Below, in pieces: positions 1 to 18,634 of a stretch of DNA of 18,745 bases. Source of the DNA: a virus (lineage: Duplodnaviria > Heunggongvirae > Uroviricota > Caudoviricetes); IMG/VR virus record IMGVR_UViG_2563366948_000001, positions 1 through 18,745 of that record; one strand, 5' to 3'. Positions within the stretch are counted from its first letter, which is position 1, and each line of letters begins with the position of its first letter. The notes under the pieces are model-generated. The model did not search any database and was not told the DNA's origin. It worked only from the letters and a program-made list of their open reading frames with translations. The position numbers and the translations under genes were made by a program.

Positions 1-1284
1 TTACTTCTTCGCCTCTGCAACCACTTTACTACCCACGCCGCGGTTATTGTATTCCCACATGCGGTTGTAGTTAGTGTCATTCAGATTGCGCTGTATTTCG
101 TCGTTATCATCTACGCTGCCGGTATTACCCGCAAACGGACGATTAGAGATCACCGCATCGGCCCACGGTTTAGCCGTGTTAAAACCTTCGTTGATGGCGC
201 TATCACGGATCACCACCTGACCGTTGGTATTGGCATCAACATCCAGCGAGCGGCCCAGTTGCGCCACACCATCACCGAAAGCATTGAAACGGCTGTTTAC
301 GGCGAGGAAACCGTAGTAAATGTTGGACAGCGTAGCCGGTGCAAACACATACGCTTCTTGCTGAGTACGTGAGTTCACCACGCGGAATTCGGTGTTATCG
401 AACACCACTGCGCCGCGACCAGAAACGATATCCACATCCCCTTCAATGTAGCTGTTGGTCACCAGCGTACGCGGCTGACGATTTGTTTCCAGACGGTTCT
501 GCACACCGCTGTTGGTGACAAAGAAGGTGTTCTGACGACCGAGAATGTTAACGTTGTTAATCTGTACCTGGTCACCATCAGTACGCAGTGCCACCGCCGG
601 ATGGTTACCTGCATCTACGCTATCGCCCAGCGTGTTTTCGATGGTCAGATTTTGCAGTTGCAGGCCATTGTTTTGTGACCAGAAGACCGCAGAGCAGAGA
701 ACACCGATACTGTCGCTGCGTTTGCTCTGGCAGCTATCGTACATATACCACGCTGGTTTACCTGGCATATATTTGCCGCGCGGGTTGACGTCGTGACGCC
801 AGTCGGCAGGGCTCATGCCACCATCAAGGGAAAGCCCAATCTTCACATCAATCGGTTTTTCACCTGTACCGTACAGAGTAATTCCACCCGGAGCGGCAGG
901 GACATATACCGTTCCCTGATACTCACCAGGCATCACGGCAATATACTGGCGCTTGTTGGTACGCTTGATAATTGCCGCATCTACCGCCGCCTGAATCGTG
1001 GTATGCGTTACACCTTGAGTGCCCGCCGGGCCGACAACAAAGTCAGGTTGCGCAGGCAGGGTAATCGGGGAAGGATTCCACGCTGCAGCACCTGGTGTCA
1101 GGGATGCAAAATAGTGTTGAGCATCGAAATTCTGCGCTTCTTTTGCCGACAGAATCGGGCGAGAAGAGGTACCAGGCGCGGTTTGATCAGAAGGACGTTG
1201 ATCGGGCGGGGTTGAGCTACAGGCGGTCAGCGTCACGCCAAAAGCCAATGCCAGCGCCAGACGGGAAACTGAAAATGTGTTCAC
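1..1284 (-). CDS. ybhC: YbhC-like outer-membrane lipoprotein (pectinesterase-family, putative acyl-CoA thioesterase); host gene flanking attB-lambda
   Basis: 427-aa ORF in track; N-terminal signal with lipobox (LTAC); sequence recognised as E. coli YbhC; start codon appears to be GTG. Confidence 0.8.
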   Translation of the reverse strand: MNTFSVSRLALALAFGVTLTACSSTPPDQRPSDQTAPGTSSRPILSAKEAQNFDAQHYFASLTPGAAAWNPSPITLPAQPDFVVGPAGTQGVTHTTIQAAVDAAIIKRTNKRQYIAVMPGEYQGTVYVPAAPGGITLYGTGEKPIDVKIGLSLDGGMSPADWRHDVNPRGKYMPGKPAWYMYDSCQSKRSDSIGVLCSAVFWSQNNGLQLQNLTIENTLGDSVDAGNHPAVALRTDGDQVQINNVNILGRQNTFFVTNSGVQNRLETNRQPRTLVTNSYIEGDVDIVSGRGAVVFDNTEFRVVNSRTQQEAYVFAPATLSNIYYGFLAVNSRFNAFGDGVAQLGRSLDVDANTNGQVVIRDSAINEGFNTAKPWADAVISNRPFAGNTGSVDDNDEIQRNLNDTNYNRMWEYNNRGVGSKVVAEAKK

Positions 1285-1330
1285 AGGTTGCTCCGGGCTA
1301 TGAAATAGAAAAATGAATCCGTTGAAGCCT

Positions 1331-1345
1331 GCTTTTTTATACTAA
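1331..1345. other. attL: lambda att common core (GCTTTTTTATACTAA) = attL crossover site
   Basis: Exact 15-bp lambda core between the ybhC start and int; bacterial arm to the left, phage P' arm to the right. Confidence 0.9.
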
Positions 1346-1418
1346 GTTGGCATTATAAAAAAGCATTGCTTATCAATTTGTTGCAACGAACAGGTCACTA
1401 TCAGTCAAAATAAAATCA
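1346..1418. promoter_or_regulatory. attP P' arm with Int arm-type and IHF binding sites
   Basis: Sequence GTTGGCATTATAAAAAAGCATTGCTTATCAATTTGTTGCAACGAACAGGTCACTATCAGTCAAAATAAAATCATTATTTG matches the lambda P' arm as I recall it. Confidence 0.75.
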
Positions 1419-2489
1419 TTATTTGATTTCAATTTTGTCCCACTCCCTGCCTCTGTCATCACGATACTGTGATGCCATGGTGTCCGACTTATGCCCGAGA
1501 AGATGTTGAGCAAACTTATCGCTTATCTGCTTCTCATAGAGTCTTGCAGACAAACTGCGCAACTCGTGAAAGGTAGGCGGATCCCCTTCGAAGGAAAGAC
1601 CTGATGCTTTTCGTGCGCGCATAAAATACCTTGATACTGTGCCGGATGAAAGCGGTTCACGACGAGTAGATGCAATTATGGTTTCTCCGCCAAGAATCTC
1701 TTTGCATTTATCAAGTGTTTCCTTCATTGATATCCCGAGAGCATCAACATGCAATGTTGTTGGGATGGCAATTTTTACGCCTGTTTTGCTTTGCTCGACA
1801 TAAAGATATCCATCTACGATATCAGACCACTTCATTTCGCATAAATCACCAACTCGTTGCCCGGTAACAACAGCCAGTTCCATTGCAAGTCTGAGCCAAC
1901 ATGGTGATGATTCTGCTGCTTGATAAATTTTCAGGTATTCGTCAGCCGTAAGTCTTGATCTCCTTACCTCTGATTTTGCTGCGCGAGTGGCAGCGACAGG
2001 GTTTGTTGTTATATGGCCTTCAGCTATTGCCTCTCGGAATGCATCGCTCAGTGTTGATCTGATTAACTTGGCTGACGCCGCCTTGCCCTCGTCTATGTAT
2101 CCATTGAGCATTGCCGCAATTTCTTTTGTGGTGATGTCTTCAAGTGGAGCATCAGGCAGACCCCTCCTTATTGCTTTAATTTTGCTCATGTAATTTATGA
2201 GTGTCTTCTGCTTGATTCCTCTGCTGGCCAGGATTTTTTCGTAGCGATCAAGCCATGAATGTAACGTAACGGAATTATCACTGTTGATTCTCGCTGTCAG
2301 AGGCTTGTGTTTGTGTCCTGAAAATAACTCAATGTTGGCCTGTATAGCTTCAGTGATTGCGATTCGCCTGTCTCGGCCTAATCCAAACTCTTTACCCGTC
2401 CTTGGGTCCCTGTAGCAGTAATATCCATTGTTTCTTATATAAAGGTTAGGGGGTAAATCCCGGCGCTCATGACTTCGCCTTCTTCCCAT
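1419..2489 (-). CDS. int: Lambda integrase (tyrosine recombinase)
   Basis: 356 aa beginning MGRRRSHERRDLPPNLYIRNNGYYCYRDPRTGKEF, recognised as lambda Int; adjacent to attL. Confidence 0.95.
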   Translation of the reverse strand: MGRRRSHERRDLPPNLYIRNNGYYCYRDPRTGKEFGLGRDRRIAITEAIQANIELFSGHKHKPLTARINSDNSVTLHSWLDRYEKILASRGIKQKTLINYMSKIKAIRRGLPDAPLEDITTKEIAAMLNGYIDEGKAASAKLIRSTLSDAFREAIAEGHITTNPVAATRAAKSEVRRSRLTADEYLKIYQAAESSPCWLRLAMELAVVTGQRVGDLCEMKWSDIVDGYLYVEQSKTGVKIAIPTTLHVDALGISMKETLDKCKEILGGETIIASTRREPLSSGTVSRYFMRARKASGLSFEGDPPTFHELRSLSARLYEKQISDKFAQHLLGHKSDTMASQYRDDRGREWDKIEIK

Positions 2490-5054: not shown

Positions 5055-5731
5055 CGCCATTGCTCCCCAAATACAAAACCAATTTCAGCCAGTGCCTCGT
5101 CCATTTTTTCGATGAACTCCGGCACCATCTCGTCAAAACTCGCCATGTACTTTTCATCCCGCTCAACCACGACATAATGCAGTCCTTCACGCTTCATACG
5201 CGGGTCATAGTTGGCAAAGTACCAGGCATCTTTTCGCGTCACCCACATGCTGTACTGCACCTGGGCCATGTAAGCCGACTTTATGGCCTCGAAACCACCG
5301 AGCCGGAATTTCATGAAATCCCGGGAGGTAAACGGGCATTTCAGCTCAAGGCCATTGCCGTCACTGCATAAACCATCGGGAGAGCAGGCGGTGCGCATAC
5401 TTTCGTCGCGATAGATGATCGGGGATTCAATAACATTTACGCCGGAAGTGAACTCAAACAGGGTTCTGGCGTCGTTCTCGTACTGTTTTCCCCAGGCCAG
5501 CGCTTTAGCGTTAACTTCCGGAGCCACACCGGTGCAAACCTCAGCTAGCAGGGTGTGGAAGTAGGACATTTTCATGTCAGGCCACTTCTTTCCTGATCGG
5601 GGCTTTGCTATCACGTTGTGAACTTCTGAAGCGGTGATGACGCCGAGCCGTAATTTGTGCCATGCATCATCCCCCTGTTCGACAGCTCTCACGTCGATCC
5701 CGGTACGCTGCAGGATAATGTCCGGTGTCAT
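5051..5731 (-). CDS. exo: Lambda exonuclease (Red-alpha)
   Basis: 226 aa [65 protein letters not shown]..., recognised as lambda Exo; AAGGTGG Shine-Dalgarno. Confidence 0.95.
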
Positions 5732-5772
5732 GCTGCCACCTTCTGCTCAGTGGCTTTCTGTTTCAGGAAACC
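5728..5772 (-). pseudogene. bet: bet (Red-beta) 3' remnant: last ~14 codons and stop only
   Basis: Minus-strand reading ends ...[14 protein letters not shown], matching the lambda Bet C-terminus; upstream residues do not match Bet. Confidence 0.7.
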
Positions 5773-5776
5773 GAAT

Positions 5777-6028
5777 TTTGCAGGGTGGGCTAACGATATC
5801 CGTCTGATGCGTGAACGTGACGGCCGTAACCACCGCGACATGTGCGTGCTGTTCCGCTGGGCATGCCAGGACAACTTCTGGTCCGGTAACGTGCTAAGTC
5901 CGGCCAAACTCCGCGACAAGTGGACCCAACTCGAAATCAACCGTAACAAGCAACAGGCTGGCGTGACAGCCGGAAAATCAAAACTCGACCTGACAAACAC
6001 TGACTGGATTTACGGGGTGGATTTATGA
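5777..6028 (+). pseudogene. O: Replication initiator O, C-terminal ~83 codons only (no start, no ori iterons)
   Basis: FAGWANDIRLMRERDGRNHRDMCVLFRWACQDNFWSGNVLSPAKLRDKWTQLEINRNKQQAGV...LDLTNTDWIYGVDL matches the lambda O C-terminus; stop overlaps P start (ATGA). Confidence 0.8.
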
Positions 6029-9986: not shown

Positions 9987-10071
9987 AGTCAGAGATAACA
10001 ATCAACTAATACTGTTTCGTTGATTTTTGCTTGTAATTGGCGTTCTGGTCTGATTTTTGTGGAGTAAGTTG

Positions 10072-10455
10072 ATGCGTGATATTCAGATGGTTCTTGAGCG
10101 TTGGGGAGCGTGGGCGGCTAATAATCATGAAGATGTGACCTGGTCGTCCATTGCCGCCGGTTTTAAGGGATTAATTACTTCAAAAGTAAAATCTCGCCCG
10201 CAATGTTGTGACGATGACGCGATGATCATTTGCGGGTGCATGGCCCGTCTGAAAAAGAACAACAGCGATTTGCACGATTTATTAGTAGATTATTATGTAG
10301 TCGGTATGACATTCATGTCACTGGCAGGTAAGCATTGCTGCTCTGATGGTTATATCGGGAAAAGGTTACAGAAGGCTGAGGGCATAATTGAAGGGATGTT
10401 AATGGCATTAGATATCCGGTTAGAGATGGATATCGTTGTTAATAACTCTAATTAA
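10072..10455 (+). CDS. quuD: Late-gene antiterminator Q (DLP12 QuuD / phage-21-type Q)
   Basis: 127 aa [34 protein letters not shown]... with Cys-rich zinc-binding region; GGAG Shine-Dalgarno; track ORF starts at an upstream TTG. Confidence 0.85.
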
Positions 10456-10469
10456 TATGCCAATTGTTT

Positions 10470-10643
10470 ACTAAAAATTATTAAAAATGGGGCGTTGAAA
10501 CGCCCCCAAAAATAAAGGGTAATATATAACAGAAGGTTTATATAGTTAGAAGCAAGGTTGTGCTTCTAAAGGAAGTGGCTTGAGGGAGCCACTTATATGT
10601 TGGGGAGGCAAAGCCTCCCACAACATATCTTTTAGTAATCAAA
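10470..10643 (-). ncRNA. Porin gene 3' UTR with three stem-loops plus terminator; candidate IpeX-like regulatory RNA
   Basis: Hairpins at 10548-10565, 10575-10592 and 10602-10618; terminator hairpin GGGGCG-TTGAAA-CGCCCC (10489-10506) followed on the minus strand by ATTTTTAATAATTTTT; in DLP12, ipeX maps between the nmpC stop and its terminator. Confidence 0.35.
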
Positions 10644-11726
10644 TTAGAACTGGTAAACCATACCTACAGCAACGATATCATCGGTAGCAACGCCAGATGC
10701 TTTCGTGAAATCGCTCTTATCAATCAGGTTGATTTTGTAATCAACAAAAGTGGACATATTTTTGTTGAAGTAATAGGTTGCACCTACATCAATATATTCA
10801 ACCAGGTCCTGATCACCCCACGCACCCAAGTCTTTTCCTTTAGATTGCAGGTAAGCAACGGACGGACGCAGACCGAAGTCGAACTGATATTGTGCAACTA
10901 CTTCGAAGTTTTGTGCTTTGTTGGCAATATGGTTATTACCAAAAACAGTCATGTTCTGGGTTTCAGAATAGGTGGTAGCCAGATAGATGTTGTTCGCATC
11001 ATATTTCAGACCAGCTGCCCATACTTCAGCATTTTGACCAGATGCATTCAGGCTGTTGTTACCGTAGATAACCTGATTATTAGTGCGGTCAGATTTAGCA
11101 TAGGTTGCACCTACACCGAATCCTTCATACTCATAAGTAGTGGAGAAACCGAAACCATCACCATTAGCTTCAGTTACGTCAGTGCGGTCATTTTTACCCT
11201 GATACTGAGCAGCAAAGTTCAGACCATCAACCAGACCAAAGAAGTCGTTGTTACGATAAGTTGCAACACCAGTGGTGCGACCAGTCATGAACACATCTGT
11301 TTGGGTCCAGGTATCGCCACCGAATTCTGGCAGAACGTCAGTCCACGCACCGATGTCGTATGCTACACCGTAGTTACGGCCGTAATCGATTGAGCCGTAG
11401 TCACCGAATTTCAGGCCTGCAAATGCAAGACGGGTTTTGTCTTTGGAGGAACCTTGAGATTCAGCGCGGTTGCCTTTGAATTCATATTCCCACTGACCGA
11501 AACCAGTCAGTTGATCGTTGATTTGGGTTTCACCTTTGAAGCCAAGACGGGCATAAGTAGTATCACCATCATCTGCATCATTAGAGGAGAAGTAGTGCTT
11601 AGCATTAACTTTCCCGTACAGATCCAGCTTGTTACTGTCTTTATTATAAATTTCAGCTGCCTGAGCAGACATCGCCATCAGTACTGATGCAGCTACAGCA
11701 GAAATTGCCACTGTTAATTTTTTCAT
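10644..11726 (-). CDS. nmpC: Phage-encoded general porin (OmpC/OmpF family; NmpC/Lc-like), apparently intact
   Basis: 360 aa with signal peptide [23 protein letters not shown], porin N-terminus [16 protein letters not shown] and C-terminal ...VYQF; sits between Q and the lysis genes on the opposite strand. Confidence 0.9.
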
Positions 11727-12154
11727 CGTGAGCCCTTTTTTTTGAACTATTATTAAAAAATGATGTCACTGCGCGATAAATATTCATCTAATCAATGTGA
11801 TTATTTCAAGATGTAAGTTTTGGTTTCTCGTTTGATTTGTGAAGTAGATCTCTATTTTTATCTGAACTTTTTTCTATCGAATCCTATTCATAGCTCTTGG
11901 CTGAATAAAAATAAATCTATTAGCCAATTTATATTAACGGCTGTTATTTATAAGTGCTCTATAATTTGAAGGTTCAATTTAAATCGGCTAAAAATAACAC
12001 TGGAAATTATTTGTTGGTTATTTGTTGAGATTTGCTTATGTATTTGTAGTGGTGTTTTCAATACTCGGTAGCATTCTCGCAAATATCATTTAGTGGTTTA
12101 CGTACGTAAAAAATTGGTTATGCTGTTAAGAGTGGTTACTTCGTCACACAGCTT
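11727..12154 (-). promoter_or_regulatory. AT-rich porin upstream region (promoter or regulator-binding candidate)
   Basis: ~430 bp strongly AT-rich with phased A/T tracts immediately upstream of the porin start; no ORF. Confidence 0.35.
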
Positions 12155-12187
12155 AAACCCGCCGTCGAGCGGGTTTTTCCATTTTTT
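12155..12187 (+). terminator. Candidate intrinsic terminator upstream of the lysis cassette
   Basis: AAACCCGC-CGTCGA-GCGGGTTT hairpin followed by TTCCATTTTTT; position computed from the holin ATG at 12300. Confidence 0.45.
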
Positions 12188-12299
12188 GAGTCTCGATATT
12201 AGCTGATAACCCAATACCTGAGTTATTCACTGACTCCGAGTCTGTTACGTTTCGTAGTATTCCCTCAATTTACACCCGCTTTGTCTGCGAGGTGGGGTT

Positions 12300-12515
12300 A
12301 TGAAATCCATGGATAAGTTAACAACGGGTGTCGCCTATGGCACCTCAGCAGGTAGTGCCGGGTACTGGTTTTTACAGCTGCTAGATAAAGTCACGCCCTC
12401 ACAGTGGGCGGCAATTGGAGTGCTGGGTAGCCTGGTATTTGGCCTGCTGACGTACCTGACAAACCTTTATTTCAAGATTAAAGAAGATAAGCGTAAGGCT
12501 GCGAGAGGTGAATAA
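12300..12515 (+). CDS. essD: Class II pinholin (S21-type) with dual-start motif
   Basis: 71 aa [29 protein letters not shown]...; Met1-Lys-Ser-Met4 dual start typical of S21 antiholin/holin; two TM segments. Confidence 0.9.
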
Positions 12516-13012
12516 TGTCGCCATCATTACGCAAGGCTGTAGCAGCTGCTATTGGTGGTGGGGCTGTTGCCATAGCGTCTGTGCTCATCACTGGTCCGAG
12601 TGGTGACGATGGTCTGGAAGGTGTCAGCTACATACCATATAAAGATATTGTTGGTGTATGGACTGTATGTCACGGGCATACAGGAAAAGACATCATGCTC
12701 GGTAAAACGTATACCAAAGCAGAATGCAAAGCACTCTTGAATAAAGACCTTGCCACTGTCGCCAGACAAATTAACCCGTACATCAAAGTCGATATACCGG
12801 AAACAACGCGCGGCGCTCTTTACTCATTCGTTTACAACGTGGGTGCTGGCAATTTCAGAACATCGACGCTTCTTCGCAAAATAAACCAGGGCGATATCAA
12901 AGGCGCATGTGATCAGCTACGTCGCTGGACATATGCTGGCGGTAAGCAATGGAAAGGTCTCATGACTCGTCGTGAGATTGAGCGTGAAATCTGTTTGTGG
13001 GGTCAGCAATGA
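12515..13012 (+). CDS. rrrD: SAR endolysin (signal-anchor-release lysozyme, R21-type)
   Basis: 165 aa; N-terminal Gly/Ala-rich weakly hydrophobic SAR segment [20 protein letters not shown], then lysozyme domain; start overlaps holin stop. Confidence 0.9.
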
Positions 13013-13470
13013 ACAGAGTAACCGCGATTATCTCCGCTCTGGTTATCTGCATCATCGTCTGCCTGTCATGGGCTGTTAATCATTACCGTGATAACGCCAT
13101 TACCTACAAAGCCCAGCGCGACAAAAATGCCAGAGAACTGAAGCTGGCGAACGCGGCAATTACTGACATGCAGATGCGTCAGCGTGATGTTGCTGCGCTC
13201 GATGCAAAATACACGAAGGAGTTAGCTGATGCGAAAGCTGAAAATGATGCTCTGCGTGATGATGTTGCCGCTGGTCGTCGTCGGTTGCACATCAAAGCAG
13301 TCTGTCAGTCAGTGCGTGAAGCCACCACCGCCTCCGGCGTGGATAATGCAGCCTCCCCCCGACTGGCAGACACCGCTGAACGGGATTATTTCACCCTCAG
13401 AGAGAGGCTGATCACTATGCAAAAACAACTGGAAGGAACCCAGAAGTATATTAATGAGCAGTGCAGATAG
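13009..13470 (+). CDS. rzpD: Rz i-spanin
   Basis: 153 aa from ATG overlapping the endolysin stop; N-terminal TM segment then coiled-coil-rich periplasmic domain. Confidence 0.85.
13229..13411 (+). CDS. rzoD: Rz1 o-spanin (lipoprotein), embedded in +1 frame within Rz
   Basis: 60 aa [23 protein letters not shown]... with lipobox LVVVGC and proline-rich mature region [15 protein letters not shown]; wholly inside Rz. Confidence 0.8.
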
Positions 13471-13501: not shown

Positions 13502-13795
13502 TTATTGTGAGCAATACACACGCGCTTCCAGCGGAGTATAAATGCCTAAAGTAATAAAACCGAGAAATCCATTTACGAATGTTTGCTGGGTTTCTGTTTT
13601 AACAACATTTTCTGCGCCGCCACAAATTTGGGCTGCATCAACAGTTTTCTCCTGTCCAATTCCCGAAACGAAGAAATGATGGGTGATGGTTTCCTTTGGT
13701 GTTACTGCTGTCGGTTTGTTTCCAACAGTAAACGTCTGTTGAGCACATCCTGTAATAAGCATTGCCAGAGCGGCAGAAAACAACATTTTTTTCAT
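13502..13795 (-). CDS. bor: Bor lipoprotein (serum-resistance, lysogenic conversion)
   Basis: 97 aa MKKMLFSAALAMLITGCAQQTFTVGNKPTAVTPKETITHHFFVSGIGQEK..., recognised as Bor; track ORF extends 16 codons upstream. Confidence 0.9.
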   Translation of the reverse strand: MKKMLFSAALAMLITGCAQQTFTVGNKPTAVTPKETITHHFFVSGIGQEKTVDAAQICGGAENVVKTETQQTFVNGFLGFITLGIYTPLEARVYCSQ

Positions 13796-13961
13796 CTTAT
13801 TATCCTGCATTGTTAAAAACGGCAGAATCCTATGTGACAACAATTAAACGATAGTTAAATGGATTGATGAAAATTAAAACTATATAGGTGGATGCTCAGC
13901 CTATTGGAGGAGGGGGGCACTCAGAATCCTGTGGAATGAAATAAACCGCTCTATCTGTCCA

Positions 13962-14460: not shown

Positions 14461-15915
14461 ATGGAAGTCAACAAAAAGCAGCTGGCTGACATTTTCGGTG
14501 CGAGTATCCGTACCATTCAGAACTGGCAGGAACAGGGAATGCCCGTTCTGCGAGGCGGTGGCAAGGGTAATGAGGTGCTTTATGACTCTGCCGCCGTTAT
14601 AAAATGGTATGCCGAAAGGGATGCTGAAATTGAGAACGAAAAGCTGCGCCGGGAGGTTGAAGAACTGCGCCAGGCCAGCGAGGCAGATCTCCAGCCAGGG
14701 ACTATTGAGTACGAACGCCATCGACTTACGCGTGCGCAGGCCGACGCACAGGAACTGAAGAATGCCAGAGACTCAGCTGAAGTGGTGGAAACCGCATTCT
14801 GTACTTTCGTGCTGTCGCGGATCGCAGGTGAAATTGCCAGTATTCTCGACGGGATCCCCCTGTCGGTGCAGCGGCGTTTTCCGGAACTGGAAAACCGACA
14901 TGTTGATTTCCTGAAACGGGATATCATCAAAGCCATGAACAAAGCAGCCGCGCTGGATGAACTGATAACCGAATCCCATCTCGGCAAGGAGCTGCTGGAA
15001 AAAGTCGAGCTGACGGAGGATAACGCCAGCAAACTGGAGGAGTTTTCGAAAGAGTGGCAGGACGCTAACGATAAGTGGAATGCCATGTGGGGCGTCAAAA
15101 TTGAGCAGACCAAAGACGGCAAACATTATGTCGCGGGTATTGGCCTCAGCATGGAGGACACGGAAGAAGGCAAGCTGAGCCAGTTTCTGGTTGCCGCTAA
15201 CCGTATCGCGTTTATTGACCCGGCAAACGGGAATGAAACGCCGATGTTTGTGGCGCAGGGCAATCAGATATTTATGAACGACGTGTTCCTGAAGCGCCTG
15301 ACGGCCCCGACCATTACCAGTGGTGGAAATCCACCGGCATTTTCCCTGACATCAGACGGAAAGCTGACCGCTAAAAATGCGGATATCAGTGGCAGTGTGA
15401 ATGCGAACGCCGGGACGCTCAACAATGTCACGGTAAATGAAAACTGTACGATTAAGGGCATGCTGGAGGCGACTCAGGTCAGAGGTGACTTCGTTAAAGC
15501 TGTATCCAAATCATTCCCGAAACAGGCTGGTACGTGGGGTAATACGGAAACACCAAACGGGACGGTTACAGTCACCATCAGCGATGATCATAACTTTGAC
15601 CGTCAAATCATTATTCCGCCCATTATCTTTAACGGAATAGCGTATAGCGATCCGGGAAGTGGTAATAACCCGGGAGGTACAAGATACACGGGTTATGGTT
15701 TTGAAGTTCGCAAAAACGGTGTATTAATCGCATCCAGAGAAACTAAAGGGGCCATTCCCGGTAGCTACAGTGCGGTTATTGATATGCCGAGTGGCAGGGG
15801 AAGCGTCACTCTGGAGTTTAAGGTTTTCCATAAAGGCAATCAGCGGGCAGGTAATATCACCGACTGTACGGTGATTGTGACCAAAAAAGCCGCTTCCGGC
15901 ATCAGTATTCGTTGA
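14461..15915 (+). CDS. In-frame fusion: terminase small subunit Nu1 (residues 1-169) joined to the C-terminal ~315 residues of tail-tip protein J
   Basis: N-terminus [34 protein letters not shown]...AALDELI is lambda Nu1; from [21 protein letters not shown]... onward it matches the lambda J C-terminal region; single 484-aa ORF. Confidence 0.85.
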
Positions 15916-15984: not shown

Positions 15985-16353
15985 ATGCGTAAACTTTATG
16001 CCGCCATTTTTTCCGCAGCCATTTGTCTGGCCGTATCCGGTGCGCCTGCATGGGCATCTGAACATCAGTCCACGCTGAGCGCGGGGTATCTTCATGCCTC
16101 GACGAACGTTCCCGGCAGCGATGATCTGAACGGGATTAACGTGAAATACCGTTATGAGTTTACGGACACACTGGGGCTGGTGACGTCATTCAGCTATGCA
16201 GGAGACAAGAATCGCCAGCTGACCCGTTACAGCGATATCCGCTGGCATGAAGATTCCGTTCGTAACCGCTGGTTCAGCGTAATGGCGGGGCCGTCTGTGC
16301 GCGTGAATGAATGGTTCAGCGCGTATGCGATGGCGGGTACCTTCTGCCCGTAA
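15985..16353 (+). pseudogene. lom: lom (Ail/Lom-family outer-membrane protein), truncated after codon 118
   Basis: MRKLYAAIFSAAICLAVSGAPAWASEHQSTLSAGYLHAS... matches lambda Lom up to ...WFSAYAMAG, then TFCP-stop; lambda Lom is ~206 aa. Confidence 0.8.
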
Positions 16354-17539
16354 GGTGAATGGTAAGGCGCTTTCAGCGGATATAACACTGACGCCGAAAG
16401 ATATTGGTACGCTTAACTCAACAACAATGTCATTCAGCGGTGGTGCTGGTTGGTTCAAATTAGCAACGGTAACCATGCCACAGGCGAGTTCTGTTGTTTC
16501 AATTACGTTGATTGGTGGCGCGGGATTTAACGTGGGGTCACCTCAACAGGCAGGTATATCTGAACTTGTTTTGCGTGCAGGTAATGGTAATCCGAAGGGG
16601 ATTACTGGTGCTTTATGGCAGCGCACATCGACAGGGTTTACAAATTTTGCCTGGGTCAATACATCTGGTGATACTTACGATATTTACGTTGCAATCGGAA
16701 ATTATGCGACTGGTGTAAATATTCAATGGGATTATACCAGTAATGCCAGCGTGACGATTCATACGTCACCAGCATATTCTGCTAATAAGCCGGAAGGGTT
16801 AACGGACGGTACAGTTTATTCACTCTATACGCCATCAGAGCAGTTTTATCCGCCTGGCGCACCAATCCCGTGGCCATCAGATACCGTTCCGTCTGGCTAT
16901 GCCCTGATGCAAGGGCAGACTTTTGACAAATCTGCATACCCGAAACTTGCAGCCGCTTATCCGTCAGGCGTGATCCCTGATATGCGTGGCTGGACGATTA
17001 AGGGCAAACCCGCCAGTGGTCGTGCCGTATTGTCTCAGGAACAGGACGGCATTAAATCGCACACCCACAGCGCCAGCGCATCCAGTACGGATTTGGGGAC
17101 GAAAAACACATCGTCGTTTGATTACGGAACCAAATCCACGAATAACACCGGGGCGCATACCCATAGTATTAGCGGGACTGCAAATAGTGCCGGTGCGCAC
17201 CAACACAAGAGTTCCGGTGCATTTGGTGGCACGAACACGAGCATTTTCCCTAATGGTTATACCGCGATTTCAAATCTAAGCGCGGGGATTATGAGCACAA
17301 CAAGCGGTAGTGGCCAGACTCGTAATGCAGGGAAGACATCATCAGATGGTGCTCATACCCACTCGCTGTCCGGCACTGCTGCAAGCGCAGGCGCACACGC
17401 ACATACTGTCGGTATTGGTGCTCATACGCACTCCGTTGCGATTGGCTCACATGGACACACCATCACCGTTAACGCTGCTGGTAACGCGGAAAACACCGTC
17501 AAAAACATCGCATTTAACTATATTGTGAGGCTTGCATAA
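16339..17539 (+). pseudogene. stf: Side tail fibre Stf, C-terminal ~400 codons only
   Basis: Open frame continuous with track ORF 16307-17539; contains tail-fibre-type His-rich repeats (GAHTHS, GAHQHK, GAHAHT, GSHGHT); no credible start; abuts truncated lom. Confidence 0.75.
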
Positions 17540-18120
17540 TGGCATTCAGAATGAGTGAACAAGCACGGACCATAAAAATTTATAATCTGCTGGCCGGAAC
17601 TAATGAATTTATTGGTGAAGGTGACGCATATATTCCGCCTCATACAGGTCTGCCAGCAAACAGTACCGATATTGCACCGCCAGATATTCCGGCTGGCTTC
17701 GTGGCTGTTTTCAACAGTGATGAGTCATCGTGGCATCTCGTTGAAGATCATCGGGGTAAAACGGTTTATGACGTGGCTTCCGGCGATGCGTTATTTATTT
17801 CTGAACTCGGTCCGTTACCGGAAAATGTTACCTGGTTATCGCCGGGAGGGGAGTTTCAGAAGTGGAACGGCACAGCCTGGGTGAAGGATACGGAAGCAGA
17901 AAAACTGTTCCGGATCCGGGAGGCGGAAGAAACAAAAAACAGCCTGATGCAGGTAGCCAGTGAGCATATAGCGCCGCTTCAGGATGCTGTGGATCTGGAA
18001 ATCGCAACGGAGGAAGAAACCTTGTTGCTGGAAGCCTGGAAAAAGTATCGGGTGTTGCTGAACCGTGTTGATACATCAACTGCACCGGATATTGAATGGC
18101 CAGTAGCACCTATAGGGTAA
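17539..18120 (+). CDS. tfa: Tail fibre assembly protein Tfa
   Basis: 193 aa [54 protein letters not shown]..., recognised as lambda Tfa; start overlaps stf stop. Confidence 0.9.
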
Positions 18121-18256: not shown

Positions 18257-18634
18257 TTATTGATAGTGTTTTATGTTCAGATAATGCCCGATGACTTTGT
18301 CATGCAGCTCCACCGATTTTGAGAACGACAGCGACTTCCGTCCCAGCCGTGCCAGGTGCTGCCTCAGATTCAGGTTATGCCGCTCAATTCGCTGCGTATA
18401 TCGCTTGCTGATTACGTGCAGCTTTCCCTTCAGGCGGGATTCATACAGCGGCCAGCCATCCGTCATCCATATCACCACGTCAAAGGGTGACAGCAGGCTC
18501 ATAAGACGCCCCAGCGTCGCCATAGTGCGTTCACCGAATACGTGCGCAACAACCGTCTTCCGGAGACTGTCATACGCGTAAAACAGCCAGCGCTGGCGCG
18601 ATTTAGCCCCGACATAGCCCCACTGTTCGTCCAT
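18257..18634 (-). CDS. insB: IS1 transposase InsB segment (made in vivo as InsAB' by -1 frameshift)
   Basis: 125-aa [51 protein letters not shown]..., recognised as IS1 InsB. Confidence 0.9.

Follow-up and report, generated by a model that had tools for sequence, protein, structure and literature searches.

The window, i.e. the whole stretch of 18,745 nucleotides analysed here, starts in ybhC on the lambda attB side and continues with a lambda-type integrase. The locus of interest within this prophage consists of a gene encoding an antiterminator Q, a porin gene on the opposite strand, and a lysis cassette that encodes an S21-type holin (S), an endolysin, Rz and Rz1. The coordinates are collected in Table 1. 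An earlier note, made from the sequence alone, had placed the porin between Q and the lysis cassette and antisense to Q and S, a position borne out by the open reading frames and their Pfam matches. To the right of the porin, Bor is also found along with the holin, endolysin and Rz/Rz1 genes.

Table 1. Features of the Q-porin-lysis region, with positions in the window.
Feature	Position	Strand	Basis
Porin CDS, NmpC/Lc family	10644..11726	-	ORF, Pfam, alignments, database matches
Porin signal peptide	11658..11726	-	identity with annotated Lc signal peptide
Mature porin, 337 aa	10647..11657	-	part of porin CDS
Porin stop codon	10644..10646	-	part of porin CDS
Porin 3'UTR, IpeX small-RNA region	10478..10643	-	98% identity, RNA fold, terminator scan
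Intrinsic terminator of IpeX region	stem 10506..10489, then AUUUUUAAUAAUUUUU	-	terminator scan
15-bp hairpin then CUUUU, adjoining porin stop codon	10595..10633	+	fold -22.7 kcal/mol, z=-6.35
Porin promoter region PnmpC	11727..11925	-	97% identity to K-12 and PA-2
Candidate PnmpC hexamers	-35 TTGAAA 11809..11804; -10 GAATAT 11785..11780; TSS G ~11774	-	inferred from sequence
CRP-binding site 1, ATTTGTGAAGTAGATCTCTAT	11835..11855	-	PA-2 annotation (J02580 1363..1383) mapped via alignment
Q antiterminator, QuuD type, 127 aa from ATG	10072..10455	+	Pfam Phage_antitermQ, E=4e-53
Late promoter pR' homologue: -35 TTTACG, 16-nt spacer, -10 TATGCT	12097..12124	+	Stx-phage alignment
pR' initial transcribed region	12131..12151	+	Stx-phage 'putative Q-utilization'; second CRP site in 1986 PA-2 record
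Terminator-like hairpin AAACCCGC-CGTCGA-GCGGGTTT, then TTCCATTTTTT	12155..12188 (hairpin 12155-12176)	+	terminator scan, fold
S21-type holin	12300..12515	+	ORF, Pfam; matches K-12 essD
Endolysin	12515..13012	+	ORF, Pfam; matches K-12 rrrD
Rz	12997..13470	+	ORF, Pfam; matches K-12 rzpD
Rz1	13229..13411	+	ORF, Pfam; matches K-12 rzoD

The porin gene and its flanks

The porin gene is a single uninterrupted reading frame of 360 aa with an ATG start. Its product covers the Pfam profile Porin_1 (PF00267) from position 1 to 337 of 337 (E=3e-153, 510.6 bits against a cut-off of 23.7), and residues 24-360 align end to end with the solved structures of OmpC, OmpF, PhoE and OmpK36 (E down to 1e-137). The protein contains the loop-3 or constriction-loop motif LPEFGGDT (PEFGG) at residues 132-139 and terminates in VGMVYQF, i.e. 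with the terminal phenylalanine. Judged by profile and alignments, its membership in the general bacterial porin family of the OmpC/OmpF/PhoE type is unambiguous. The first 23 residues equal the sig_peptide annotated for Lc in J02580 without a single difference, with cleavage preceding AEIYNK; the segment is N-terminal and ends in AxA, as a Sec signal peptide does. The full-length reading frame, the signal peptide and the C-terminal Phe had all been noted before and hold, as does the contrast with nmpC of the K-12 prophage DLP12: the K-12 copy is split by IS5B, the window copy is whole. An antisense ORF inside the porin gene (10845..11393, + strand) was discarded as a mechanical ORF with nothing backing it.

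The earlier note had also pointed to the Lc and NmpC porins as the proteins to compare. The window porin shares 90.1% amino acid identity with Lc of phage PA-2 and likewise 90.1% with NmpC of K-12 as reconstructed by removal of IS5; the signal peptide is shared with Lc. Two small deletions or indels distinguish it from Lc/NmpC. The differences are clustered at residues 182-187, 216-231 and 263-267 and are scattered past residue 300; by OmpF topology, the divergent positions are presumably the external loops L4-L8. On the DNA level, identity with K-12 nmpC is 99-100% in the first 360 nt and 59-91% in the distal two thirds, with dS up to ~1. The allele is therefore a mosaic, near-identical to K-12 over its first 360 nt and far more divergent in the remainder. 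The ratio dN/dS against K-12 nmpC is 0.106 and hence indicates purifying selection, not a decaying pseudogene; selection on the sequence argues for a working porin gene.

The DNA upstream of the porin is AT-rich, as had been claimed (28-30% GC at 11700-12149). The 5' flank (11720-12305) shares 97% identity with K-12, PA-2, 434B and C21, and the centre of CRP site 1 lies ~71 bp upstream of the inferred transcription start. In K-12, PnmpC is a sigma-70 dependent promoter with a 'G' start mapped by 5'RACE, and removal of -199..-1 abolishes its activity (PMC11677980). CRP activates the K-12 promoter at two sites; OmpR, IHF and MprA act as repressors, and the nmpC mRNA is targeted by RyhB (PMC11677980). 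The NmpC gene of prophage Perceval in strain LF82 is expressed in the lysogen 10-fold above the local background (PMC9928086). A simple promoter scan flagged neither the porin promoter nor the late promoter homologue described below, as both are under its threshold of 9 of 12 matches; their positions therefore rest on homology and literature. By homology, the window porin would possess its own CRP-dependent promoter.

The 3' flank (10440-10650) shares 98% identity with K-12 DLP12, PA-2, 434B and C21. It corresponds to the small RNA IpeX of DLP12, reportedly described by Castillo-Keller et al. in 2006. On the porin strand this region folds into three to four stable hairpins (-65.1 kcal/mol, z=-9.1), and sequence and structure agree with what is expected of IpeX, namely a region of ~165-167 nt located 3' of the porin stop codon and ended by a terminator. 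No IpeX or pR' leader family was matched by Rfam at the gathering threshold; with the limit set to E<=1, a lone sub-threshold match to Trp_leader on the terminator hairpin was judged to be due to chance. According to the literature, IpeX derives from the porin transcript by processing and represses ompC and ompF (PMC12197685). Since both flanks of the window porin are 97-98% identical to DLP12 and PA-2, they would contain the nmpC promoter that has been characterised as activated by CRP, together with the IpeX 3'UTR; promoter activity, CRP control and IpeX function are transferred here from published work on near-identical sequences. Read on the + strand, the same region contains the hairpin followed by CUUUU that adjoins the porin stop codon and may act as a weak terminator for readthrough out of Q. 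On the - strand this hairpin has no U-run and is simply the first hairpin of IpeX.

Q, the late promoter homologue and the state of the prophage

The mechanical Q reading frame begins at TTG 10057, and in RefSeq genomes the gene is annotated as quuD. The protein is 78% identical to Q of VT2-Sakai/933W and 85% identical to Q of PhiR40_1. A comparison of the porin-S intergenic region with phages yields matches of 12096-12178 to ~300 Stx-phage records (77-86% identity). In these records the counterpart is located at the end of Q and bears the labels 'putative late promoter', 'putative Q-utilization' and 'terminator'; the promoter homologue in Table 1 aligns with the 'putative late promoter' given for VT2-Sakai, phi24B and Ss-VASD. 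Compared with the VT2-Sakai/933W type, the unit is 77-78% identical over 83 nt (E=3e-12): the -35 hexamer TTTACG is the same, the -10 hexamer reads TATGCT in the window versus TATCAT, and the hairpin stem is conserved with a T-run next to it. Transcription from the homologue is predicted to start at ~12131. The hairpin at 12155-12176 with its U-run is the sole candidate for tR' between pR' and S, and is homologous to the first terminator annotated past pR' in VT2-Sakai.

The pR' motif occurs once in the window, with 0 copies expected by chance. Of the 83 columns of the block, 82 are invariant (99.5% conserved) in an alignment of 8 modules, taken from the window, K-12, PA-2 and five isolated phages, compared to 86-92% for the adjacent AT-rich DNA; the block is the best-conserved part of the porin-S intergenic region. 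For Sakai, dRNA-seq has mapped a PR' start described as 'closely associated with Q', and Term-seq has placed tR' 258 nt downstream (PMC7547250). Exactly 258 nt also separate the expected start of the annotated promoter in the VT2-Sakai record from the point where the second annotated terminator ends, and the annotated promoter is therefore supported; the Sakai start was assigned to it by this match of distances, using version.2 of the genome record versus.1 in the paper. The -10-like pause element of 933W (TACATT, 4/6) reads TACTTC (2/6) at the aligned position of the window, and a Q-loading site is not obvious from the window sequence.

The BLAST alignment with VT2-Sakai consists of two collinear blocks, Q (10070-10404) and pR' (12096-12178). 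The gap between both blocks is 88 nt in VT2-Sakai, 601 nt in PhiR40_1 and 1691 nt in the window; in PhiR40_1 it is filled by a different, unrelated antisense ORF. A fragment used for reporters of the DLP12 lysis cassette takes in the DNA between the porin gene and essD, as opposed to that near Q (PMC7918800). Its forward primer maps to 11654-11673, inside the 5' end of the porin gene; the reverse primer, searched in the window and in the K-12 locus, gave no match. A tRNA scan of the window detected none, hence there is no tRNA cargo of the kind found in Stx phages.

The conserved unit thus appears to be the late promoter served by the Q of the window, on a homology that is short and with Stx-phage labels that themselves read 'putative'. 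As it is located on the S side of the porin, the porin lies between Q and the promoter that Q targets, and hence outside the late transcript; judging from this arrangement, late transcription probably does not cross the porin. The earlier note had put the porin within the path of Q-antiterminated late transcription. This does not agree with the sole pR' homologue (12096-12178), which lies on the S side and points away from the porin.

The prophage of strain C21 is fuller: 5.9 kb of it are missing from the window, where the junction lies at ~5764-5769. The loss comprises most of bet, gam, kil, the XRE repressor, a cro-like gene, ydaT and most of the first replication gene. An in-frame fusion at 14461..15915 links a Nu1 terminase domain with the C-terminal part of tail protein J; every head gene and most of the tail genes have therefore been lost. 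Because the repressor/pR region and the head and tail genes are lost, classical lytic induction is impossible for this prophage, and the former claim that such induction would silence the porin does not apply to it. In an intact relative, rightward transcription from pR could pass out of Q and enter the porin antisense, the sole barrier being the hairpin with CUUUU next to the porin stop codon.

The porin cassette and its rival readings

The exact porin protein (RefSeq WP_000737275.1) occurs on at least 1000 public contigs, where it is named 'porin OmpC', 'porin OmpD' or 'outer membrane porin protein LC'. The 1951-bp stretch of Q, porin and S matches 50 phage records with a best identity of 99.0%, among them PA-2 (lc, 92%), 434B (nmpC::IS5) and many recently isolated lambdoid coliphages; the layout Q-porin(-)-S is common to PA-2, 434B, DLP12 and at least 36 phage records. 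The stretch has matches in 4446 of the 5426 complete E. coli genomes, and 2465 of them cover at least 80% of it in one piece. The module is hence already known and ordinary, annotated in thousands of genomes and present in about half of the complete E. coli genomes. The gene, its promoter, the small RNA of its 3'UTR and its location in lambdoid phages have been on record since the 1980s. On the evidence of the sequence, the NmpC/Lc porin cassette known from lambdoid prophages is present here as an intact allele. The names 'ompC: porin OmpC' in RefSeq and OmpD in phage records might be read to mean that the gene is a core chromosomal porin (ompC or ompD) and not phage cargo. We give this reading practically no credence: the names are automatic family-level labels, the gene belongs to a lambdoid prophage at ybhC (lambda attB), where its neighbours are Q and the lysis genes, and isolated phages carry the same module.

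With high confidence, we consider the locus to be a known moron cassette that comprises a CRP-dependent promoter, an exported porin, the IpeX 3'UTR and a terminator, that is expressed in the lysogen and that stands outside the late operon. Such a moron would be self-contained, i.e. an accessory gene with its own expression signals set in the phage genome. Leftward transcription would start from the sigma-70, CRP-activated promoter in the AT-rich DNA at ~11727-11925. The transcript would encode a Sec-exported general-diffusion porin and would run on into the structured ~165-nt 3'UTR, to end at a terminator ~25-35 bp before the Q stop codon is reached. In the lysogen, the porin would enter the outer membrane and IpeX, processed from the porin transcript, would lower the OmpC of the host; the remodelled cell surface would then have changed permeability and changed receptors for phages and colicins. 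The cassette (~10405-12095) would fill a variable slot between Q and the late promoter targeted by Q. Q-modified late transcription would begin ~170 bp before S, at ~12131, and meet the hairpin at 12155-12176; with Q, the late transcript would pass this hairpin and proceed rightward into S at 12300, never crossing the porin. For Lc of phage PA-2, lysogenic conversion is the textbook role. The proposal of the earlier note that the porin is a candidate for lysogenic conversion is accordingly plausible in light of the promoter being active in K-12 (PMC11677980) and of NmpC being expressed in the LF82 lysogen (PMC9928086).

Two other readings concern the expression of the gene. The late promoter might be located directly past Q as in lambda, such that Q-modified polymerase crosses 1.8 kb antisense to the porin and silences it by collision. 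The gene order Q, porin (-), S is real, pR' adjoins Q in lambda and in Stx phages, and there is no strong + strand terminator past Q before the hairpin at 10595-10633. However, the promoter scan detected no promoter-like site on the + strand in 10456-10643, just past Q, and this segment is the IpeX region, conserved as an RNA of the - strand. The single copy of the pR' motif is found at 12096, the promoter homologue for this type of Q is nearly invariant downstream of the porin, and the DLP12 reporters make use of a fragment from the 5' end of the porin plus the porin-essD intergenic region (PMC7918800). We therefore regard the collision of polymerases as very unlikely.

The porin might also be intact and yet transcriptionally silent, a cryptic remnant without effect on the cell surface, for example by action of H-NS on the upstream DNA of 28-30% GC. 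The extreme AT-richness of this region is compatible with silencing, the prophage is heavily deleted, and K-12 tolerates an inactivated copy. The near-identical K-12 promoter nevertheless yields a clear 5'RACE product (PMC11677980), NmpC of Perceval exceeds its local background in LF82 as described above (PMC9928086), and the dN/dS ratio speaks for selection on the protein. Silence is hence improbable, if somewhat less so than collision, and the expressed, self-contained cassette remains the reading we prefer.

The position of the cassette corrects the earlier picture: in this phage type the late promoter would follow the porin cassette, in contrast to stx, and the porin would be an insulated, lysogen-expressed gene that late transcription does not silence. 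A generalisation is that the gap between a Q of the 933W/DLP12 type and its pR' is a recurrent and so far unrecognised slot for cargo expressed in the lysogen, an idea that we hold to be speculative and rather unlikely. The examples are the porin with IpeX in the window and the unrelated antisense ORF in PhiR40_1, and the slot may differ in kind from the well-known stx slot downstream of pR'. If true, the cargo of the slot is expressed in the lysogen and kept off the late transcript, with its promoter positioned back to back with a constitutively firing pR' at a distance of ~290-350 bp. Given the 'CRP site 2' of the 1986 record, which falls into the pR' leader, a coupling of the two promoters by way of CRP, supercoiling or H-NS is conceivable. 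For the carrying strain, the intact copy predicts an additional CRP-dependent porin together with an IpeX-mediated decrease of OmpC; an extra porin and lowered OmpC can affect antibiotic permeability as well as sensitivity to phages and colicins. As a discovery the locus carries little weight, as gene, promoter, small RNA and phage location have long been described.

Comparison with known systems

The closest systems are the porin modules of PA-2 and DLP12. Lc of PA-2 (GenBank J02580; Blasband, Marcotte, Schnaitman 1986) has the same position between Q and the lysis genes and the same orientation as the window porin. The flanks of lc are ~97% identical upstream, including the annotated CRP site, and ~98% identical on the 3' side. 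Lc consists of 365 aa and the window porin of 360 aa; PA-2 is a viable phage, whereas the window prophage is a deleted remnant. The K-12 DLP12 module (nmpC, b0553) has the order quuD - nmpC - essD/rrrD/rzpD, which matches the window, with both flanks 97-98% identical. In K-12 nmpC and in nmpC::IS5 of phage 434B, IS5 is inserted after codon 346, whereas the window copy has none. DLP12 is integrated at argU and the window prophage at ybhC (lambda attB).

IpeX of DLP12 is 98% identical to its counterpart in the window over 166 nt and shares the hairpins and the terminator. The four substitutions and one 1-nt indel are located in a bulge, in loops or outside the stems. In DLP12 the small RNA lies downstream of an IS5-interrupted gene, whereas in the window it would be the natural 3'UTR of an intact porin. 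With OmpC, OmpF, PhoE and OmpK36 the window porin has in common the full-length family match, the PEFGG motif of loop 3 and the C-terminal Phe; it differs from them in being phage-borne, with its own CRP-dependent regulation and a small RNA in its 3'UTR.

The pR' unit of 933W/VT2-Sakai, which gives rise to the StxS RNA (PMC7547250), overlaps the end of Q, and the cargo (tRNAs, stx) is located downstream, inside the late transcript. The first hairpin of Sakai, the homologue of the window hairpin at 12155-12176, is not the tR' that has been mapped; the window has neither a second terminator nor the StxS-S part. In contrast to the Stx phages, the window carries its cargo of 1.69 kb upstream of pR', outside the late transcript.

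Mosaic structure of the porin gene

Compared with nmpC of E. coli K-12, the porin gene (window 10644..11726, minus strand) has a mosaic structure: nucleotides 1-360 are 99-100% identical, whereas the rest of the gene reaches only 59-91% identity, with a dS of about 1.07 in the middle third. The flanks on both sides of the gene are again at 97-98% identity. The near-identical 5' part and flanks, set against the diverged remainder, suggest that recombination has exchanged the stretch that codes for the surface loops.

Deletions and decay of the prophage

When set against the prophage carried by E. coli C21, the window shows a deletion junction at about 5764-5769, where some 5.9 kb are absent. 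The missing segment comprises most of bet, the genes gam and kil, the XRE repressor, a cro-like gene and ydaT, as well as most of the replication initiator gene. The prophage is thus left without an immunity region. The chimeric ORF that remains at the junction (see table) has no match in a Pfam search.

A second rearrangement is evident from the 484-aa ORF, in which residues 1-164 constitute a complete Nu1 small-terminase domain, joined in frame to the C-terminus of lambda J, its tail-tip and receptor-binding part (Pfam domains Phage_Tail_Tip and Ig_GpJ_C). The fusion of both parts in one ORF implies a deletion that removed every head gene and most of the tail genes. The truncated Lom/Ail-family ORF and the IS1 transposase fragment near the window end are further signs of prophage decay. 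The Rfam match to IS009 lies inside the tail-fibre-assembly ORF, and may therefore reflect coding conservation rather than a separate RNA.

Features of the window prophage and of phage PhiR40_1 (record L007)
Record	Feature	Position	Strand	Remark
Window	Chimeric remnant ORF at deletion junction	5728..6000	-	comparison with C21
Window	nin-region ORF, 164 aa	7043..7537	+	weak VasI Pfam match
Window	Bor/Iss-family lipoprotein gene	13502..13843	-	antisense, directly after Rz
Window	Nu1/J fusion ORF, 484 aa	14461..15915	+	Pfam domains
Window	Lom/Ail-family ORF, truncated	15985..16353	+	119/199 profile positions covered
Window	Tail-fibre-assembly ORF (Caudo_TAP)	17539..18120		contains IS009 match
Window	Rfam IS009 match	17882..18080	+	221 bits, E=1e-54
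Window	IS1 transposase fragment	18257..18634	-	near window end
L007	Q	540..905		
L007	Antisense ORF, 148 aa, annotated hypothetical	990..1436	-	between Q and pR'-like element
L007	pR'-like element	1501..1583		

Cargo genes and the gap between Q and pR'

Besides the porin, the Bor/Iss-family gene is predicted to be a second outer-membrane gene expressed in the lysogen; translation probably begins at the internal MKKMLFSAALAMLITGC, rather than at the upstream TTG. The 164-aa nin-region ORF, labelled 'TagO' in strain C21, is unusual cargo for a lambdoid prophage. Its match to VasI (type VI secretion) scores 26.7 bits and barely exceeds the cut-off of 26.5.

The bases at window 12131..12151 (plus strand) carry two annotations: the 1986 record of phage PA-2 gives them as a second CRP site of lc, and in Stx phages they are labelled 'putative Q-utilization'/pR' leader. 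Both annotations have apparently never been reconciled. The gap between Q and pR' itself may be a slot that is used repeatedly for cargo: in the window it is occupied by the porin, whereas in PhiR40_1 the same gap is filled by a different antisense ORF.
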